Below are positions 19,748-27,657 of a DNA stretch of 27,657 nucleotides, piece by piece. Made by a program: the position numbers and the translations under genes. This DNA comes from a virus (Duplodnaviria > Heunggongvirae > Uroviricota > Caudoviricetes): the IMG/VR virus record IMGVR_UViG_2703718778_000008, one strand, 5' to 3'. Numbering within the stretch: the first letter of the stretch is position 1; each line of letters starts with the position of its first letter. Below the pieces are notes generated by a model, which was not told the DNA's origin, did no database searches, and saw only the letters and a program-made list of their open reading frames with translations.

Positions 19748-20584
19748 TCAGAATTCAGCCAGTGTCTGGTCAGTGCCGCCAGCGGAAGTAAAACGCTGCT
19801 GTGGATCGGCATCCTGGTTTCTCAGTTGCGCTTTCAGTGCTGCAAGCTCGAGACTGAGCTCATCCAGCGCCGTTTTGTCGAGGGCATGTTTCTGCTCCAG
19901 AGTGCTGAAACGGTCGATAAGATCTGCATGATCGGATGCGATGTTTTCCACAACGTCGCGCAGCTGGCTGAACTGCTCGCCATCCGCTGTGCGTGTTTTG
20001 CTGATGAGTGCCATGACGCGGCTGAACCACTGACGGCTCTCTTCCGTTCGCTGTTCTGTGGTGGTAAGCATCTCTGCTTCCATGGCGACGGTGAACATGG
20101 GGGGTTCTGTTGTGCACTTACTGAACTGCATGATGCTGGCGCGTTGCTGTGCGGCAAACTCCAGGCGTTCAGTGCCCAGACTTGCTGGCGTGTCGGTCAT
20201 TGCCAGACCCACAATGTAAGGCCCCTTGACGGCGTCCAGCTCAGGCAACATCTCAATGCTCGAATACACTTTTTTCCCGTCAGCAATCATGTTTTTCATG
20301 CGGTCGGTGGGTTCAATTTCGGCATATAACGCTGTACGCCCTGCCAGTTTCCCTTCGGTGATTTCATCAGTTGACAGAGCGATCAGATCACCCACTGCGC
20401 AGAGTTCACTGGATGGCCACATCGAAAGGACGTGCTCAATGTTCACCCGGGAGGCGTAAACGGACGGGTCATAGTTTTCTGCGGCCTGACGCAGCATTTC
20501 ACCAGAAATTTCACGTCCGTCGATGGTTGAACCGGAAACGGCAACGCGAAATTTTTTGCGCTCTGGCGTGTTTTTGCTTCCCAT
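19748..20584 (-). CDS. O: capsid scaffolding protein gpO (278 aa)
   Basis: ...KKFRVAVSGSTIDGREISGEMLRQAAENYDPSVYASRVNIEH...YSSIE.....GPYIVGLAMTDTPASLGTE.LEF matches the P2 gpO pattern. The ATG at 20584 has GGAG 8 nt upstream. Confidence 0.88.
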   Translation of the reverse strand: MGSKNTPERKKFRVAVSGSTIDGREISGEMLRQAAENYDPSVYASRVNIEHVLSMWPSSELCAVGDLIALSTDEITEGKLAGRTALYAEIEPTDRMKNMIADGKKVYSSIEMLPELDAVKGPYIVGLAMTDTPASLGTERLEFAAQQRASIMQFSKCTTEPPMFTVAMEAEMLTTTEQRTEESRQWFSRVMALISKTRTADGEQFSQLRDVVENIASDHADLIDRFSTLEQKHALDKTALDELSLELAALKAQLRNQDADPQQRFTSAGGTDQTLAEF

Positions 20585-20654
20585 GGAAATTCTCCATAAC
20601 CTGGTCGTTTTTCCCATGATGGCGGCAGATAACGGTGTGTCTCAAGGTGCTTAA

Positions 20655-20676
20655 GTTGTATGGCGACGGGGACAAC
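20655..20676. promoter_or_regulatory. Ogr-type late-promoter activator site, GTTGT-N12-ACAAC (contains TGT-N12-ACA), between divergent O and P
   Basis: A perfect 5-bp-arm dyad read directly from the sequence. Its centre (20665.5) lies about 54 bp upstream of a predicted P TSS (-10-like CTTAAT at 20707-20712) and about 56 bp from a predicted O TSS (minus-strand CATCAT at 20621-20616). P2-family late promoters carry TGT-N12-ACA near -55. Confidence 0.6.
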
Positions 20677-20739
20677 GCGGGCTGGTATCAGGCGGTATTG
20701 CTGAGGCTTAATCTTGCCCTGTTAATGTCAGGGGGTGCA

Positions 20740-22473
20740 ATGATCCAGGATGTCTTTATTCGTATGCGGGCGAAACAGCTTTACTGGCAGGGGTATACCC
20801 CGGCGGATATCGCTCAGCTGATGGGAATAAACCAGAACACGATTTATTCGTGGAAAAAACGCGATGAGTGGGATGCCACTCCCCCGATCCAGCGGGTCAC
20901 CCAGTCCATTGATGCACGCCTGATACAGCTCACCGCCAAACCGGATAAAAGCGGCGGTGACTTTAAGGAAATTGACCTGCTGACGCGCCAGCTGAAAAAA
21001 CTGAATGACGGTCAGGGAGAACAGGCTGTTTCCGGTAAGAAGCCCCGCAGGCGCAAACTGAAAAATCACTTCACCGAAGAGCAGATTGTCGCTCTCAGGG
21101 AAAAAATCCTGCCGTCACTGGCCTGGCATCAGCGCGAATGGTACGACAACCGCCATCACCGCAACCGCATGATCCTGAAGTCGCGTCAGATTGGTGCGAC
21201 CTGGTATTTTGCGCGCGAAGCACTCCTTGATGCACTGCGTGATGATGTCTCCGCCGGGTACCAGCGCAACCAGATATTTTTGTCCGCATCCCGTCGCCAG
21301 GCGTATCAGTTCAAACACTTTATTCAGCAGGCGGCGCTGGAAGTTGATGTCGAACTGAAAGGGGGTGACAAGATTGTTTTGTCTAACGGTGCAGAGCTTC
21401 ACTTCCTTGGCACATCGGCAGCAACCGCTCAGTCGTATACCGGACACCTTAAATTTGATGAATTTTTCTGGGTCAGTAATTTTGTGCAGTTGCGAAAGGT
21501 GGCTGGCGCAATGGCAACCCTGAAAGGCCTTACCCGTACCTACTTTTCAACGCCATCGGGTGAAACGCATGAAGCTTATCAGTTCTGGACGGGGGATCGC
21601 TGGAACAGTGAGCGTCCCCGCTCAAAACGCACTGAATTCGATGTGTCTCATTCGAACCTGAAAGGGGGCGTGCTCTTCCCGGATAAAACATGGCGGCAGA
21701 TTGTCACCATTGAGGATGCAGTCGCGAACGGGTGGGAATATACGAGCATTGACGATATCCGGGATGAAAACACCGAAAGCGAATTTCGTAACCTGTACAT
21801 GTGCGAGTTCGTGCGTGATGGCGAGGCGGCGTTCAGTCTGAATGCGCTGATCGGCTGTGGTGTGGATGGATACGACGAATGGCCTGACTGGAAACCTTTT
21901 GCTGCGCGTCCGATGGGCGTGCGGGAAGTCTGGCTCGGGTACGACGCCAACGGCAGCAGCGGGAAGGGGGACTGCGGGGCGCTGTCGGTCTGCGTACCTC
22001 CACGGGTTACAGGCGGTCGTTTTCGTACCGTGGAGACGGTCAGGGTGCAGGGTATGGAGTTTGAACAGCAGGCGGCCCTGATTGAGGAATACACCCAAAA
22101 ATATAACGTGAAACATATCGGCATTGATGTGACCGGCGGGAACGGGGAGGGGGTTTATCAGATTGTGAAAAAGTTTTTCCCGATGGCCGTACCGTACAAC
22201 TTCAATATCGCCTCCAAGCGGGCACTGGTCATGAAAATGCTTCAGGTGGTGCGTGCCGGACGCTGGGAGTATGACCGCAGTGAACGTGACCTGATCCAGG
22301 CATTCGCATCGGTGCGAAAAATACAGACACCCGGCGGCTATATCACCTATGACACCGACCGCTCCCGCGGTGTGAGTCATGGGGATCTTGCCTGGGCAAC
22401 CATGCTTGCTGTTATCAATGAGCCAATTGGTGCGGAGCGTGAGGATAATCGCGGCTTTGCAATGGAGTTCTGA
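20740..22473 (+). CDS. P: terminase large (ATPase) subunit gpP (577 aa)
   Basis: Size and position match. The N-terminus has an HTH-like region (QGYTPADIAQLMGINQNTIYSWKKRDEWD), and a Walker-A-like LKSRQIGATWYFA is present. The ATG at 20740 follows GGGGGTG. The upstream part of the track ORF lies in the promoter region. Confidence 0.92.
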   Translation: MIQDVFIRMRAKQLYWQGYTPADIAQLMGINQNTIYSWKKRDEWDATPPIQRVTQSIDARLIQLTAKPDKSGGDFKEIDLLTRQLKKLNDGQGEQAVSGKKPRRRKLKNHFTEEQIVALREKILPSLAWHQREWYDNRHHRNRMILKSRQIGATWYFAREALLDALRDDVSAGYQRNQIFLSASRRQAYQFKHFIQQAALEVDVELKGGDKIVLSNGAELHFLGTSAATAQSYTGHLKFDEFFWVSNFVQLRKVAGAMATLKGLTRTYFSTPSGETHEAYQFWTGDRWNSERPRSKRTEFDVSHSNLKGGVLFPDKTWRQIVTIEDAVANGWEYTSIDDIRDENTESEFRNLYMCEFVRDGEAAFSLNALIGCGVDGYDEWPDWKPFAARPMGVREVWLGYDANGSSGKGDCGALSVCVPPRVTGGRFRTVETVRVQGMEFEQQAALIEEYTQKYNVKHIGIDVTGGNGEGVYQIVKKFFPMAVPYNFNIASKRALVMKMLQVVRAGRWEYDRSERDLIQAFASVRKIQTPGGYITYDTDRSRGVSHGDLAWATMLAVINEPIGAEREDNRGFAMEF

Positions 22474-22478
22474 ACACA

Positions 22479-23522
22479 ATGAGTAAACGCAAAAAATACA
22501 CCGGAAAGCGGGGGCAGGATTCGCTACACGATGCACTGAAATCAACGCCTGCACTCAGCGCATTCACCTTTGATGGGCCCTATGAAGTCAGCCGCATGGA
22601 TCTCCTGGATAACATGTCATGTGCAGATAACGGGCGCTACTTTGATACCCCCATGGACTGGAACGCTATCGCCCGTGCATCCCGTCGTGCGTCCTGGCAT
22701 CAGTCGGCTTTGTACTTCAAGCGCAACGCCCTGAACGGGTGCTTTGTTCCTCACCCTCTGCTGTCCCGCCAGGCGTTTTCAGCCTTTGCGCTCGACTGGT
22801 TTGTGTTTGGTAATGCCTATCTTGAAGTGCGGCGTAACAGGCTGGGGGAACCACTCCTGCTTCGCCCGGCACTGGCAAAATATACACGCAGGGGAAGTGA
22901 CCTGGATACCTACTGGTATCTCAACGACGACGGTACGGAGTTCAGTTTCAGGAAAGGGACTGTGTGCCACGTGCTTAATCCTGATATTAATCAGGAGATC
23001 TACGGGATGCCGGAATATATCGGCGGGTTGCTGTCTGTCAGCCTGTCAAACTCAGCGGATACATTCCGCAAGCTCTACTACGATAACGGCTCGCATGCCG
23101 GGTGTATTATCTATGTAGGCACACCTCAGGCGAATGCGGAAAGTGTCGAGGCCATTAAAAAAACGCTTACGGATTCCCGTGGTCGCGGGGCGTTTAAAAA
23201 CCTGTTTCTTCATGCGCCGGGTGGTGGCAAGGATGGTGTGCAAATACTGCCGTTCCAGCAGATAACCGCAAAGGATGAATTCCTGAACATCAAGGGGAGC
23301 GCCCGCGACGATATCCTTGCTGCCCATCGTGTACCACCTCAACTGATGGGGGCAATGCCTGACGGGAATGCGGCGTTTGGTGACGTTGAGAAAGCGGCGA
23401 GGGTGTTTTTCATCAACGAGTTGCAACCTGTCATGGAGGCCATGAAGCATGTCAATGAATGGCTTGGCGTTGAGGTGATGCGCTTTAACCCCTATGCCCT
23501 GCTTCTGGATAACGCCAGCTGA
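22479..23522 (+). CDS. Q: portal (capsid vertex) protein gpQ (347 aa)
   Basis: Follows P by 5 nt. Size matches P2 gpQ, and the pattern looks conserved (...YFKRN.L...F......LSR..F..FALD...FGNAYLE...N..G....L......). Confidence 0.92.
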   Translation: MSKRKKYTGKRGQDSLHDALKSTPALSAFTFDGPYEVSRMDLLDNMSCADNGRYFDTPMDWNAIARASRRASWHQSALYFKRNALNGCFVPHPLLSRQAFSAFALDWFVFGNAYLEVRRNRLGEPLLLRPALAKYTRRGSDLDTYWYLNDDGTEFSFRKGTVCHVLNPDINQEIYGMPEYIGGLLSVSLSNSADTFRKLYYDNGSHAGCIIYVGTPQANAESVEAIKKTLTDSRGRGAFKNLFLHAPGGGKDGVQILPFQQITAKDEFLNIKGSARDDILAAHRVPPQLMGAMPDGNAAFGDVEKAARVFFINELQPVMEAMKHVNEWLGVEVMRFNPYALLLDNAS

Positions 23523-23548
23523 CGCGCTTCGCTTGTCTGCTGCTTCGC

Positions 23549-23573
23549 CGGGGCATAAAAAATTTATGCCCCG
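23549..23573. terminator. palindromic hairpin between convergent Q and orf167
   Basis: CGGGGCATAAA-AAA-TTTATGCCCCG has perfect 11-bp arms. There is no flanking U-run on either strand, so its termination efficiency is uncertain. Confidence 0.45.
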
Positions 23574-23587
23574 ACTCTCCAGCTCTC

Positions 23588-24091
23588 TTAACGGAATGCG
23601 GATGGCGTTCTTCTTTGCAGCTTGCTGATAATATGCATCTTCATACTGTTTACTATCGGCAGCCATTCCCTGTCACCGTCTCCGTTGATGACCACGCGAA
23701 TGGAGGTATCATCTTCCACGCGAACCCGAAGAGATACACCGTCTTTTCCGACGGAATGTAACTCCATTGCCAGGACTATGTTTACCGACTCTCCTTCATC
23801 GTGTGAGTCAACCCATGTTCTTACAGCCATCCGGAATATGTTATCTGTGTCGGTTGCAATCATATTTACCGGAAATGGCCTGAAGTCCCGATCGTTTCTG
23901 CACGGAAACCCCGTATCAACGTAACGATGATGCTCGCCGTCTTTGTCTTCCCATGTCTCTGAAGGCAATTCCAGCCACTGCTCATAAAAAGCAACCAGCT
24001 TTTCAGCCTGATTGCGCAGAATCCCTGTAACCTCCCGCCTCGCGTCCCGGCTCTTTTTGTTTGCCAGGTACAAATCGCGAAAATGGCTCAT
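23588..24091 (-). CDS. hypothetical protein, 167 aa, no family recognised (orphan cargo between portal gene and cos)
   Basis: Clean ORF with SD AAGGAGA 6 nt upstream of the ATG at 24091. A private AT-rich upstream region (24100-24240) contains sigma70-like hexamers. The product is soluble and slightly acidic. No motif recognised. Confidence 0.6.
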   Translation of the reverse strand: MSHFRDLYLANKKSRDARREVTGILRNQAEKLVAFYEQWLELPSETWEDKDGEHHRYVDTGFPCRNDRDFRPFPVNMIATDTDNIFRMAVRTWVDSHDEGESVNIVLAMELHSVGKDGVSLRVRVEDDTSIRVVINGDGDREWLPIVNSMKMHIISKLQRRTPSAFR

Positions 24092-24273
24092 GTCGCTCTC
24101 CTTTGGTCTGTTTATGCCAGCCTGTATTCTGCGCTCACCTCATATTGTGCGCAAGTTTTCACCCGTGAATGACTGATACTTTAAATTCTATTAACTTTAT
24201 GATTTCAGTGATTTTTGTCTCTCTTTTTTATCCCGTTCGTCACGTCCGTTTCCCTCCCGATCTCCGACCTCGC

Positions 24274-24300
24274 CAGACGCAATCAGACGCATTCTGACGG
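24274..24300. repeat. three 10-bp-phased direct repeats, CAGACGCA / CAGACGCA / CTGACGG
   Basis: Copies start at 24274, 24284 and 24294, so the period is exactly 10 bp. They lie about 115 bp to the Q-proximal side of the best cos candidate. Confidence 0.6.
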
Positions 24301-24413
24301 CCTGTTTCCCTGACCATGTTTTGATGTGGTTTTTCAAAACTGGCTTCACTGCGCGCGTATCACGCGCAATACGACCCCAAATAAAGCAACCTGCCTTCCA
24401 CCCCTCAATTCGG

Positions 24414-24432
24414 GCGCCCTTCCCTCGTCGCC
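24414..24432. other. putative cosN (19-nt cohesive-end sequence), reverse complement GGCGACGAGGGAAGGGCGC
   Basis: Matches 13/19 positions of the P2 cohesive end as I recall it (GGCGAGGCGGGGAAAGCAC), including both termini, and in the orientation expected next to Q. It lies in a ~500-bp GC-rich non-coding tract. Not verifiable without a comparison or an end-mapping experiment. Confidence 0.35.
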
Positions 24433-24530
24433 TGCGCGCTGCAATTGCCTCGTTTTTCGTGCACCGTGCAAAGTGGCTTCAGCCCGCGCCGTTACTGGGC
24501 TGAGTGGGGATGAAACACATAAGAAAAATT

Positions 24531-24560
24531 GTGCAATTTCGTGCACTTTTGTGCAGTTTG
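24531..24560. repeat. three tandem 10-bp repeats, GTGCAATTTC GTGCACTTTT GTGCAGTTTG (two more GTGCA copies at 24459 and 24466)
   Basis: The period is exactly 10 bp, with a T-tract in each unit, which predicts an intrinsic bend. The repeats end 15 bp upstream of the TTGACA at 24575. Confidence 0.6.
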
Positions 24561-24574
24561 AAACGGGTATCTGT

Positions 24575-24604
24575 TTGACACTGGTACTTACTTTGCGCTA
24601 ACTT
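24575..24604 (+). promoter_or_regulatory. candidate sigma70 promoter, TTGACA-N18-TAACTT
   Basis: A perfect -35 hexamer at 24575-24580, with a -10-like TAACTT at 24599-24604. The predicted TSS is near 24611. It is the only plausible promoter upstream of the 24806 gene. Confidence 0.35.
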
Positions 24605-24711
24605 TACTCGACCAGAAATTTCAATGAATCGGATGAGGTTGTTTGTCATACGACCTCGGTTAGCTAGGTTGCCTTAATCAAAAGGCATGTTTGATACTGG
24701 AGGAGGTTAAT

Positions 24712-24747
24712 ATGAATAAAGCATTTGACGAATTTGATGGATTCTGA
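24712..24747 (+). CDS. leader sORF, 11 aa (MNKAFDEFDGF)
   Basis: A very strong SD, GGAGGAGG (24699-24706), lies 5 nt upstream of the ATG. TGA at 24745-24747. Too short to assess coding potential. Confidence 0.3.
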   Translation: MNKAFDEFDGF

Positions 24748-24765
24748 ATGTGTTAACCTCGATAA

Positions 24766-24794
24766 GGCGGAGACTGATCTCCGCCTTTTTTATT
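24766..24794 (+). terminator. rho-independent terminator 12 nt upstream of the membrane-protein ATG
   Basis: GGCGGAGA-CTGA-TCTCCGCC (an 8-bp stem with a tetraloop) is followed by TTTTTTATT. Confidence 0.8.
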
Positions 24795-24805
24795 GGTAAA
24801 GAAAT

Positions 24806-25309
24806 ATGGCTATGGACTCAGTAACGATACAAATCATTAGCAATATGATAGTCCTGTTTGGTGTCATTGTTGCTATCTGTACAATTATCTATAACGTTCG
24901 TACGGCAAAAAAAACACAAACCGCTAATTTTTTATTTGAAAGTCGCCAGGATAAGGAATACCTGGAATCATTACATCTCCTCAGGAGAATTCATCGCTCA
25001 GGGAAATCGTTTCGTGCTTATGTTTTTCCTTGTGAAGGCGGGGCTATTACGGAAGAGGAGATGACCGAACGTCGCAAGTTTCAGTACATTCTTAACTTTT
25101 ACGAGAGAGTTGCAGTTAGTATCCGTGAAGGTATTTATGATGAAAGGATGATCAAACGAACGTCCTTTACAACGATTATTACAACTTATGATATTGCAGA
25201 ACCCCTGATTAAGGCTATCAGAGAAGATACTCAATCAAAAACAGCGTACCAGGAGTTTGAATGGCTGGTAAAACGATGGAAAGCTCGTCCTCTTGATAGG
25301 GATGTGTAG
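24806..25309 (+). CDS. hypothetical N-terminally membrane-anchored protein, 167 aa (AT-rich cargo in the P2 old/tin position)
   Basis: One TM helix (IQIISNMIVLFGVIVAICTIIY) is followed by a ~135-aa charged helical domain. GC is clearly lower than in the flanking phage genes. A hairpin follows the stop. It vaguely recalls small uncharacterised DUF-type proteins from phages, but no confident family assignment is possible. Confidence 0.75.
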   Translation: MAMDSVTIQIISNMIVLFGVIVAICTIIYNVRTAKKTQTANFLFESRQDKEYLESLHLLRRIHRSGKSFRAYVFPCEGGAITEEEMTERRKFQYILNFYERVAVSIREGIYDERMIKRTSFTTIITTYDIAEPLIKAIREDTQSKTAYQEFEWLVKRWKARPLDRDV

Positions 25310-26665: not shown

Positions 26666-27657
26666 GGGTTAACCTCCGGTTGATCTGCTGCCACCAGGCT
26701 TCGTGATTTTTCATCCCAGTGCACAATCCGCCCGTCAGGCAGGCGAACGCGTGCACCTCTGTGTACGGAAAGTGCTGCGCCACTGTGTAGCTCCTCGCCC
26801 GTCGTGCTCAGTGCCGACTTGATTACGGTGGTGGTGACGTCAGTCAGCGGCAATGCTGTACGCACATGTATGACGTCATCGGGCGTGGTGGGGCCGCCGG
26901 TTTTCACGGTTTTTGTGTCAGATGGCGCATCTTTCAGCTGCCTGGTGAGTTGTTTTCTCTCTGTGGGGGTCAGTGACCTTAACCATTCGCTCAAATCACC
27001 TTCCGGGATGGTCAGTTTTTGTTCTTTCCTGGTTTCCGGTGGTGGGGTTTTACCCTCTCCGGTGTCTGTTTTTTCATCATGGGGACAGTTATTGCCACGA
27101 GTCCAAGGTGCGGCGAAGCCGCCCCCAACGTCAAAATCCTCGTCCGTGCTGTTGTCGGCTTTCGCTTCTTTTCTGACCAGTTTCCACTCGTCCGGATGGG
27201 TGCAGATGGTGTAGCGCTCGCCGAGCGACGGGGCACAAATTCCGTAGATGCGCTGCGGGAATTCGCCGTAGTCGTTGGCCTCATCTGCGGTTTCGTATGC
27301 GGTGCGGATCAGGTACAGGTTGCGCGGAATGAGCACGCCGCCCTGACGGTTGATGTAGGTGGCAAAACACCCCACGTCAGCGGCGGCCAGAATGGCGTCA
27401 ATATGGTCATGGTCCAGGCGCTTCGGTGATGCGGGGTTACGCTCCATTTGTCCGGCAAGGCGGCGGAGTTCACGCCATACCTGGCGGGGCGGGATACCGA
27501 AGAACTGGAACTGCCGGATGCGGTGGAGACTCGCCCAGGCAATGGCGTTTTCCACGGTTTCCGCCATGGTTTTTCCCGCTTCTTTATCGGCGTAAGGTTT
27601 GCCGGTTTTCGGGTCATTGTCGTGAAAGGTGCTGGCGTCCAGGTTCTTGCCAATATA
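26662..27657 (-). CDS. A: replication initiation endonuclease gpA, C-terminal ~331 aa (5' end beyond the right window edge)
   Basis: The frame stays open upstream of the track ATG at 27567 all the way to nt 27657 (YIGKNLDASTFHDNDPKTGKPYADKEAGKT-MAETVENAIAWASLHRIRQFQFFGIPPRQVWRELRRL). The YI.KN.D...W....IRQFQF.G.P....WRELRR block matches my recollection of P2/186 gpA. Confidence 0.8.
   Translation of the reverse strand, partial: YIGKNLDASTFHDNDPKTGKPYADKEAGKTMAETVENAIAWASLHRIRQFQFFGIPPRQVWRELRRLAGQMERNPASPKRLDHDHIDAILAAADVGCFATYINRQGGVLIPRNLYLIRTAYETADEANDYGEFPQRIYGICAPSLGERYTICTHPDEWKLVRKEAKADNSTDEDFDVGGGFAAPWTRGNNCPHDEKTDTGEGKTPPPETRKEQKLTIPEGDLSEWLRSLTPTERKQLTRQLKDAPSDTKTVKTGGPTTPDDVIHVRTALPLTDVTTTVIKSALSTTGEELHSGAALSVHRGARVRLPDGRIVHWDEKSRSLVAADQPEVNP

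Follow-up and report, generated by a model that had tools for sequence, protein, structure and literature searches.

We analysed a 27,657-nucleotide stretch of viral DNA (IMG/VR record IMGVR_UViG_2703718778_000008; the window, in what follows), the packaging end of a P88-type E. coli prophage of the P2 family (genus Xuanwuvirus), reversed in orientation relative to the P2 map. Here we show that an open reading frame (ORF) of this window, encoding 167 amino acids at positions 23588-24091 of the minus strand, between the portal gene and the probable cohesive-end site (cos), is a real, dispensable and stand-alone accessory gene, carried as a moron-type cassette that would use a hairpin of the phage backbone. 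The identity and anatomy of the gene can be regarded as secure, with little room left for doubt. Regarding its function, the reading that we favour, with a probability of roughly 0.4, is that of a moron expressed from the resident prophage and having an exclusion-type role.

A genuine gene of the phrog_5091 family

The ORF runs uninterrupted on the minus strand, converges on the portal gene Q and is preceded by the Shine-Dalgarno sequence AAGGAGA (24103-24097, minus strand), 5 nucleotides (nt) before its ATG, all as described in the initial annotation of this DNA. Its product appears in RefSeq under WP_471724009.1, WP_000017881.1 and WP_032330900.1, each time as 'hypothetical protein'. The gene had been called an orphan, a description that has to be given up: the protein matches phrog_5091 (PHROGs v4, 'unknown function') over its full length, with residues 1-165 aligned to positions 2-162 of a 164-position profile (E=1e-40), and has about 25 homologous clusters. 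Homologues from two genomic contexts, P2-like and lambdoid, match the same phrog_5091 profile with E values of 1e-32 to 3e-62. A profile search recovered 25 family clusters, all from Enterobacterales, all 'hypothetical' and none with a Pfam domain; the genera represented are Escherichia, Serratia, Yersinia, Citrobacter, Salmonella, Cedecea, Kosakonia, Rahnella, Pantoea and Symbiopectobacterium. Searches of Pfam, NCBIfam and PADLOC gave no match for the 167-residue protein, and scanning family members singly at E<=5 was likewise negative. The initial annotation had recognised no family, transmembrane segment or catalytic motif; the phrog_5091 match now supplies a family.

The family is small. 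HMMER, run exhaustively over 1.84 billion representative proteins, returned 18 matches, of which about 12 are genuine homologues of 160-180 residues. Giant proteins with cadherin, Ig and beta-propeller repeats (P0007-P0009, P0011, P0015 and P0017), which reached phmmer E values down to 3e-17, were rejected as repeat-inflated artefacts and not homologues, since their E values arise from many weak repeated stretches matching the beta-rich part of the ORF. Searching 50,697 phage records by tblastn with the window protein found nothing, and the family was reached in these records only when a lambdoid member served as query. On plasmids the family is all but absent (2 records), a profile search of genome contigs with the alignment of the close subgroup yielded one locus, in Erwinia, and a further word-indexed protein search added almost no family members. 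We found no paper on the phrog_5091 family in the literature. A scan of 23400-24900 against Rfam gave two sub-threshold matches (isrP and gyrA), which were dismissed.

The residues invariant across the family are Y36, L40, L42, W47, Y57, G61, F70 and T92, a set more suggestive of a structural core than of catalysis. Comparison of the window allele with a 77%-identical allele (P0002, at locus L015) revealed differences at 47% of synonymous and 11% of non-synonymous sites, with a ratio of non-synonymous to synonymous substitution (dN/dS) of 0.16. This ratio, the conserved family and the confident fold model described below together establish the ORF as a genuine gene. Among 5426 complete E. coli genomes the cassette is intact in 11, at 99.4-100% identity, and persists as a remnant in 2 more. 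The closest public match, in E. coli JNEC-KY208, is 99.6% identical over 23400-24800, and the phage records nearest to the window are members of Xuanwuvirus.

An inserted cassette on the portal side of cos

The gene had been proposed to be inserted cargo, and comparison with relatives bears this out and shows it to be dispensable. Alignment with a prophage whose portal protein is 100% identical to that of the window (L002) shows that exactly the cassette at 23586-24241, the promoter region plus ORF (about 655 base pairs, bp), is absent there, with 3 bp in its place. In P2, Q lies at 187-1221 and cosL at 1-19 with no gene between, in agreement with the initial annotation, and the isolated phage P88_4B11 likewise has a portal-cos slot without a family member. 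In another relative (L003) a P0002-like copy has lost its interior, and what is left is a remnant with the 5' end, the 3' end and the promoter. At this locus (NZ_AP045170.1, 3126-4000) the portal 3' end and the hairpin occur a second time, separated from the portal stop codon by some 370 bp of additional DNA, which points to repeated recombination at this junction.

The position of the gene relative to cos was examined through the conserved non-coding block at 24242-24570 (329 bp), which is near-invariant among relatives. This block is collinear with the cos junction of P2, with an alignment score of 49 against 29 +/- 5 for shuffled sequences (3 of 500 shuffles reach 49) and 30 in the reverse orientation. 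Within this block, in which cos is not annotated, the candidate cosN at 24414-24432 (GCGCCCTTCCCTCGTCGCC) agrees with the P2 cohesive end at 13 of 19 bases and is the probable cleavage site. Locating cos by the 19-mer alone was rejected, other matches of 13-14 of 19 bases being present elsewhere in the window, and the assignment therefore derives from the collinear alignment of the whole non-coding block. Repeat boxes of the form (A/G)TGCA(C/A) follow cosN at about 24455-24475 and 24531-24556; similar boxes stand right of cos in P2 and P88_4B11, and those of the window are likely terminase-binding (cosB-like) sites. Whatever the exact nick sites, cos must lie within 24242-24570, since Q and the ORF leave between them no non-coding DNA but the hairpin region of 65 bp, and this places the 167-residue gene on the portal side of cos. 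Some 320 bp separate the start codon of the ORF from the candidate cleavage site, with about 170 bp of conserved cos flank intact between them, consistent with the earlier claim that the gene sits between portal and cos, near the genome end.

The slot is occupied in other lineages as well. The cos type of the window occurs in 29 of the 5426 genomes, and these 29 include the 11 with the intact gene and the 2 with a remnant. In a second E. coli prophage (L015) the 77%-identical allele is inserted at exactly the same point. A 43%-identical homologue lies between gpA and the portal gene of a P2-like prophage of Erwinia tracheiphila (L022), where the order is that of the window: cos-like sequence, about 300 bp, promoter, ORF, hairpin and portal. 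A more distant family member, WP_000236495.1 ('FIG00643476 hypothetical protein'; 24% identity, pairwise E=1e-10), is found between cos and portal in three isolated P88-like phages (vB_EcoM-569R5, vB_EcoM-705R2 and PhiR44_2) and in 397 of the 5426 genomes. This allele shares with the window gene its membership of phrog_5091, the cos-portal slot, the convergent orientation and the promoter architecture, but it encodes 174 residues, is far more common (397 genomes against 11) and lies on the other side of the hairpin. In vB_EcoM-569R5 (L019, 3870-4540) its insertion point falls after the portal stop codon and before the ancestral hairpin. Its place across the backbone hairpin marks an independent insertion, and the different insertion points indicate that the slot was colonised at least twice. 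The insertion in vB_EcoM-569R5 brought a new hairpin whose T-run overlaps the last portal codons.

The cargo reading had been made to depend on homologues not sitting here in most P2-like phages as a structural or packaging gene. Position-conserved homologues do exist (11 plus 2 of 29 genomes with this cos type, the 397 genomes, and Erwinia), which tells in part against it, but they are not in most such phages, nor are they recognisably structural. The family protein diverges faster than the portal protein, with identities of 77% against 95%, 43% against 67% and 25% against 69% in paired comparisons. On the A side of cos the window gene meets three different cargos, namely DUF4760, nothing annotated, and a TumE/HVO_A0114 toxin-antitoxin pair, indicating that it is not half of a two-gene system.

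The gpA-gpQ interval next to cos is the main defence hotspot of P2-like phages (PMC9122126, Rousset et al. 2022; PMC13586616). The 167-residue ORF lies inside this interval (portal 22479-23522; replication endonuclease from 26662) and, like hotspot cargo, is dispensable and variable among relatives, with presence/absence polymorphism among close prophages. It differs from most hotspot cargo and from old/tin of P2 in its side: those genes are on the gpA side, whereas the window gene is on the portal side. Table S5 of PMC9122126 enters both the window allele (WP_032330900) and the common allele (WP_000236495) as 'hypothetical', and neither allele is discussed in the main text of that paper or of PMC13586616. 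Modestly new, then, are the occupation of the portal side of cos, the stable position of the family from E. coli to Erwinia, and the presence of the same family in the lysis-proximal moron slot of lambdoid phages.

Signals that flank the gene

A perfect palindrome lies between the two convergent stop codons (23549-23573). Its arms are 11 nt long, as the initial annotation had reported, and its loop has 3 nt. The palindrome is also present in L002, L003, L004, L015 and L019, including relatives that have no ORF here, which identifies it as an element of the backbone and not of the insert. It was not called in a terminator scan and has no U-tract; it is a probable bidirectional 3' hairpin, non-canonical as an intrinsic terminator.

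Upstream of the ORF the tract at 24092-24241 is AT-rich, as had been noted, with a guanine-cytosine (GC) content of 40%, compared with 49% in the ORF, 53.5% in the portal gene and 54.5% in the whole window. Sigma70-like hexamers had also been claimed for this tract, a claim that needs qualification: a consensus scan found no promoter of at least 9 of 12 matches on the coding strand of the ORF, and what comparison across lineages reveals is a weak, conserved pair. This putative sigma70 promoter (minus strand) consists of a -35 hexamer TTGCGC (24154-24149), a 17-nt spacer and a -10 hexamer CAGAAT (24131-24126). The corresponding -35 and -10 hexamers are TTGCGC and GAAAAT in L015, TTGCCG and CAAAAT in L019, and TTGCTC and CACAAT in the Erwinia locus. 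Thus, the pattern TTGCnn, 17 nt, nAnAAT is kept in four lineages whose proteins are 24-77% identical. A perfect palindrome, TTCACCCGTGAA (24158-24169), abuts the -35 hexamer; it is conserved next to the 77%-identical allele in L015 and partly in the L003 remnant, and may be an operator for some regulator.

We also looked for the late-promoter dyad of the Ogr type, TGT-N12-ACA, and found none near 24092-24300, upstream of the ORF. The window holds only 3 such dyads (20657-20674, 12671-12688 and 9774-9791), against 6.6 expected, a number not above chance. The dyad at 20657-20674 falls between the divergent genes O and P, a place at which Ogr-dependent late promoters of the P2 type would be expected. 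In P2, the genes old and tin, which flank cos, serve lysogenic conversion and phage exclusion. The old-tin messenger RNA of P2 starts about 150 bp from cosR and reads inward, and the window gene resembles this arrangement in having a cos-proximal putative promoter that reads inward, as a mirror image across cos.

Distant homologues in lambdoid phages

Morons (a concept of Juhala/Hendrix) are known from lambdoid phages, among other places in the Q-S slot that holds stx. The lambdoid homologues of the window protein are 22-30% identical to it, are encoded by single genes and come from Salmonella, Citrobacter, Yersinia, Serratia, Pantoea, Kosakonia and a metagenome. In all loci examined they are on the late strand, either between the gene for the antiterminator Q and the holin gene or between lysis and terminase genes. 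The gene starts 55-100 nt past a tR'-like terminator in 3 of 5 loci inspected, and an intrinsic terminator of its own lies 20-80 nt downstream in 4 of 4 loci scanned, which is a hallmark of morons. No promoter of at least 9 of 12 matches was found just upstream in any of 4 lambdoid loci scanned. Thus, the distant homologues agree with lambdoid morons in being single late-strand genes in those slots with their own terminators, but differ from them in having no convincing promoter of their own. Further differences are that the product has neither a signal peptide nor toxin features, and that the window copy has a backbone-like GC content (49% against 54.5%). Unlike the lambdoid copies, the window copy would rely on the backbone palindrome at 23549-23573, which has no U-tract.

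Other genes share the Q-to-holin interval. In Salmonella (L009-L011, 8829-10139) it contains an M4-peptidase-like gene with an IS4 transposase nearby, in Pantoea (L023, 5592-6232) a HicAB toxin-antitoxin pair, and in Kosakonia (L024, 2998-4517) a pair consisting of a serine/threonine kinase and a PP2C phosphatase.

A predicted binding module

An AlphaFold2 model built from 25 family sequences is confident (predicted local distance difference test 85.5, predicted template modelling score 0.82) and displays a long N-terminal helix (4-39), an antiparallel beta-sheet (46-135) and a C-terminal helix (141-161). The protein is mildly acidic (isoelectric point, pI, 6.07) and predicted to be soluble, and the model has just two long amphipathic helices and a sheet, with no membrane segment. 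No protein of solved structure is related to it in sequence. Foldseek searches of PDB and BFVD returned nothing at E<=0.001, and AbiGII, which came up at E=0.57 in a profile search of PDB sequences, was set aside as a chance match. At the level of the fold there is resemblance to the FP domain (Fbxo7/PI31), to actin-capping protein subunits and to folds like those of type III secretion chaperones, at 6-12% identity and without significance in Foldseek, and such resemblance does not speak for homology or a common function. Assembly-adaptor folds are also similar and so, weakly, is DarA, a head protein of P1. The protein reads as a generic two-layer alpha+beta protein-binding module and probably forms a dimer. 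It is not an enzyme, a DNA mimic or a known defence or anti-defence protein. Comparison with known anti-defence proteins (Ocr/Ard DNA mimics, Dar, Acr and signal sponges) gave only generic fold scores, and a pI of 6.1 is not strongly acidic. Aligning the family profile with P2 Tin by hhalign showed the two to be unrelated, and the protein has no sequence or profile similarity to Tin or to the PADLOC models.

Neighbouring genes

The portal gene Q (22479-23522, plus strand), the gpQ homologue, matches Pfam Phage_portal (E=2.4e-18) and phrog_68 (E=3e-143) and is labelled 'phage portal protein' in a 99.6%-identical locus (L001). It follows the gene for the large terminase P (20635-22473, plus strand), and the scaffold gene O lies at 19748-20617 on the minus strand. 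On the A side of cos, the cargo of the window is a DUF4760 gene of phrog_2284 (24806-25309, plus strand; 39.7% GC). Its product has a hydrophobic N-terminus (residues about 10-30, as judged from the sequence), and a canonical terminator hairpin (24764-24787) stands just 19 bp 5' of its ATG. Between this gene and A, in map order, the minus strand carries genes for a single-stranded DNA-binding protein and a MarR-like protein and two hypothetical genes. The replication endonuclease gene A (minus strand) occupies the map from 26662 onward and runs off the window end. A truncation of A was suspected from an ORF start at 27567 and discarded, as translation revealed that the gene simply continues past the end of the window.

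Discussion

The results are best accommodated by a lysogen-expressed moron with an exclusion-type role, which we put at about two chances in five. We favour it on account of a promoter that would work unaided, the lack of a late dyad, the mirror-image layout of old/tin, the terminators of the lambdoid copies and the base rate of antiviral genes in the hotspot. With respect to this base rate, the share of unknown P2 proteins that machine-learning predictors rated antiviral was 15-32% (PMC13586616). In the mechanism that we propose, host RNA polymerase would transcribe the gene unaided, inward from a weak sigma70 promoter of its own near cos, and the product would be made from the resident prophage. 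This product would be a small, soluble, non-enzymatic alpha+beta module, probably a dimer, that binds another protein; most likely it would be a prophage-encoded exclusion or conflict factor acting against competing phages or mobile elements, and probably neither a component of the virion nor an injected anti-defence protein. The initial annotation had inclined to an early-acting anti-defence function, suggested by the terminal position of the gene. That proposal finds no support here: similarity to known anti-defence proteins does not go beyond generic fold scores, the pI is 6.1, and the distant homologues lie deep inside lambdoid genomes, in the late operon. The alternative given there, a lysogen-expressed moron belonging to the same hotspot as the gene at 24806, fits better with the conserved sigma70-like promoter, the missing Ogr-type dyad and the layout mirroring old/tin.

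Several observations weigh against lysogen-expressed exclusion. The putative promoter has only 7-8 of 12 consensus positions, and its function is read from conservation alone. The late-strand placement of the lambdoid copies, the tR'-like terminators before them and the lack of an upstream promoter argue for lytic rather than lysogen expression. The position of the slot is conserved from E. coli to Erwinia, more so than is typical of swapped defence cargo. No known defence model fits the protein (no match in PADLOC-DB at E<=1), and a single small protein with neither an effector domain nor a membrane segment would be an unusual defence architecture.

The same lambdoid loci lend weight to a different possibility, that the protein acts during productive growth as a counter-defence or takeover factor. 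It would then be a late-lytic protein that binds and neutralises either a satellite or competitor protein or a sensor or effector of host defence, such as one that responds to late structural proteins. The lambdoid copies examined all adjoin the lysis cassette on the late strand, and in the 3 of 5 loci with a tR'-like terminator upstream, antitermination by Q would express the gene as the first late gene. Presence in the lytic phase is, moreover, the one expression state common to the P2-like and lambdoid contexts; a binder-type fold that is small, soluble and mildly acidic would suit such a role, and divergence faster than that of the portal protein is compatible with an arms race. Nevertheless, we consider this explanation, the main rival, the less likely of the two. 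The P2-like copy has no late-promoter dyad, the dN/dS of 0.16 reflects purifying and not diversifying selection, the pI does not suit a DNA mimic, and anti-defence genes are rare in P2-like prophages (28 of 1511; PMC13586616).

Among P2-like prophages the place beside portal and cos is conserved from E. coli to Erwinia, which could also suggest a non-essential helper in morphogenesis, DNA packaging or the timing of lysis, such as a chaperone-like factor for portal or terminase, or a protein of the head interior or the DNA end. Lysis and terminase modules adjoin the lambdoid copies, and the fold is similar to secretion-chaperone and assembly-adaptor folds and weakly to DarA. A helper is nonetheless improbable: close prophages and an isolated phage do entirely without the gene, which is convergent to the P-Q late operon and has no Ogr-type promoter. 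Furthermore, the replacement of alleles that put a second family member across the hairpin is typical of cargo and not of core machinery, and the two phage architectures have no neighbour of the gene in common. We give equally little credence to a regulatory accessory that binds a host or phage regulator and so modulates maintenance of lysogeny, induction or host physiology. The binder-type fold with no enzyme features, the operator-like palindrome abutting the promoter and the small regulators (MarR, helix-turn-helix) nearby in the hotspot would agree with it, but no DNA-binding or helix-turn-helix motif was detected in the protein, no partner gene is conserved and nothing links the gene to the immunity region. 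Finally, a chance ORF or a decaying, functionless remnant, which the internally deleted copy in one relative and a GC content close to that of the backbone might suggest, is effectively refuted already by the conservation data: an ORF intact in 11 of 11 carrier genomes under a dN/dS of 0.16, a family conserved in at least 10 genera, a confident fold and a strong Shine-Dalgarno sequence.

Beyond the window gene, we tentatively suggest, as a rather doubtful generalisation, that phrog_5091 may be a new single-protein phage-conflict family, acting in exclusion and defence or in counter-defence by binding only. It would have been kept for long in two fixed slots, at cos and portal in P2-family phages and at the lysis cassette in lambdoid phages of Enterobacterales, and the window gene would be one of its alleles.

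The immediate value of these results is a better annotation, comprising the family, the slot, the promoter and the probable position of cos, of a gene that is already present in published hotspot catalogues as 'hypothetical'. The family is easy to study, with about 165 residues, a confident fold, divergent natural alleles at one locus and natural knock-outs. Should the family prove active against phages or against their hosts' defences, the catalogue would gain a very small single-gene system that has no effector, and the portal side of cos would be a second, position-stable cargo slot in the P2 hotspot.

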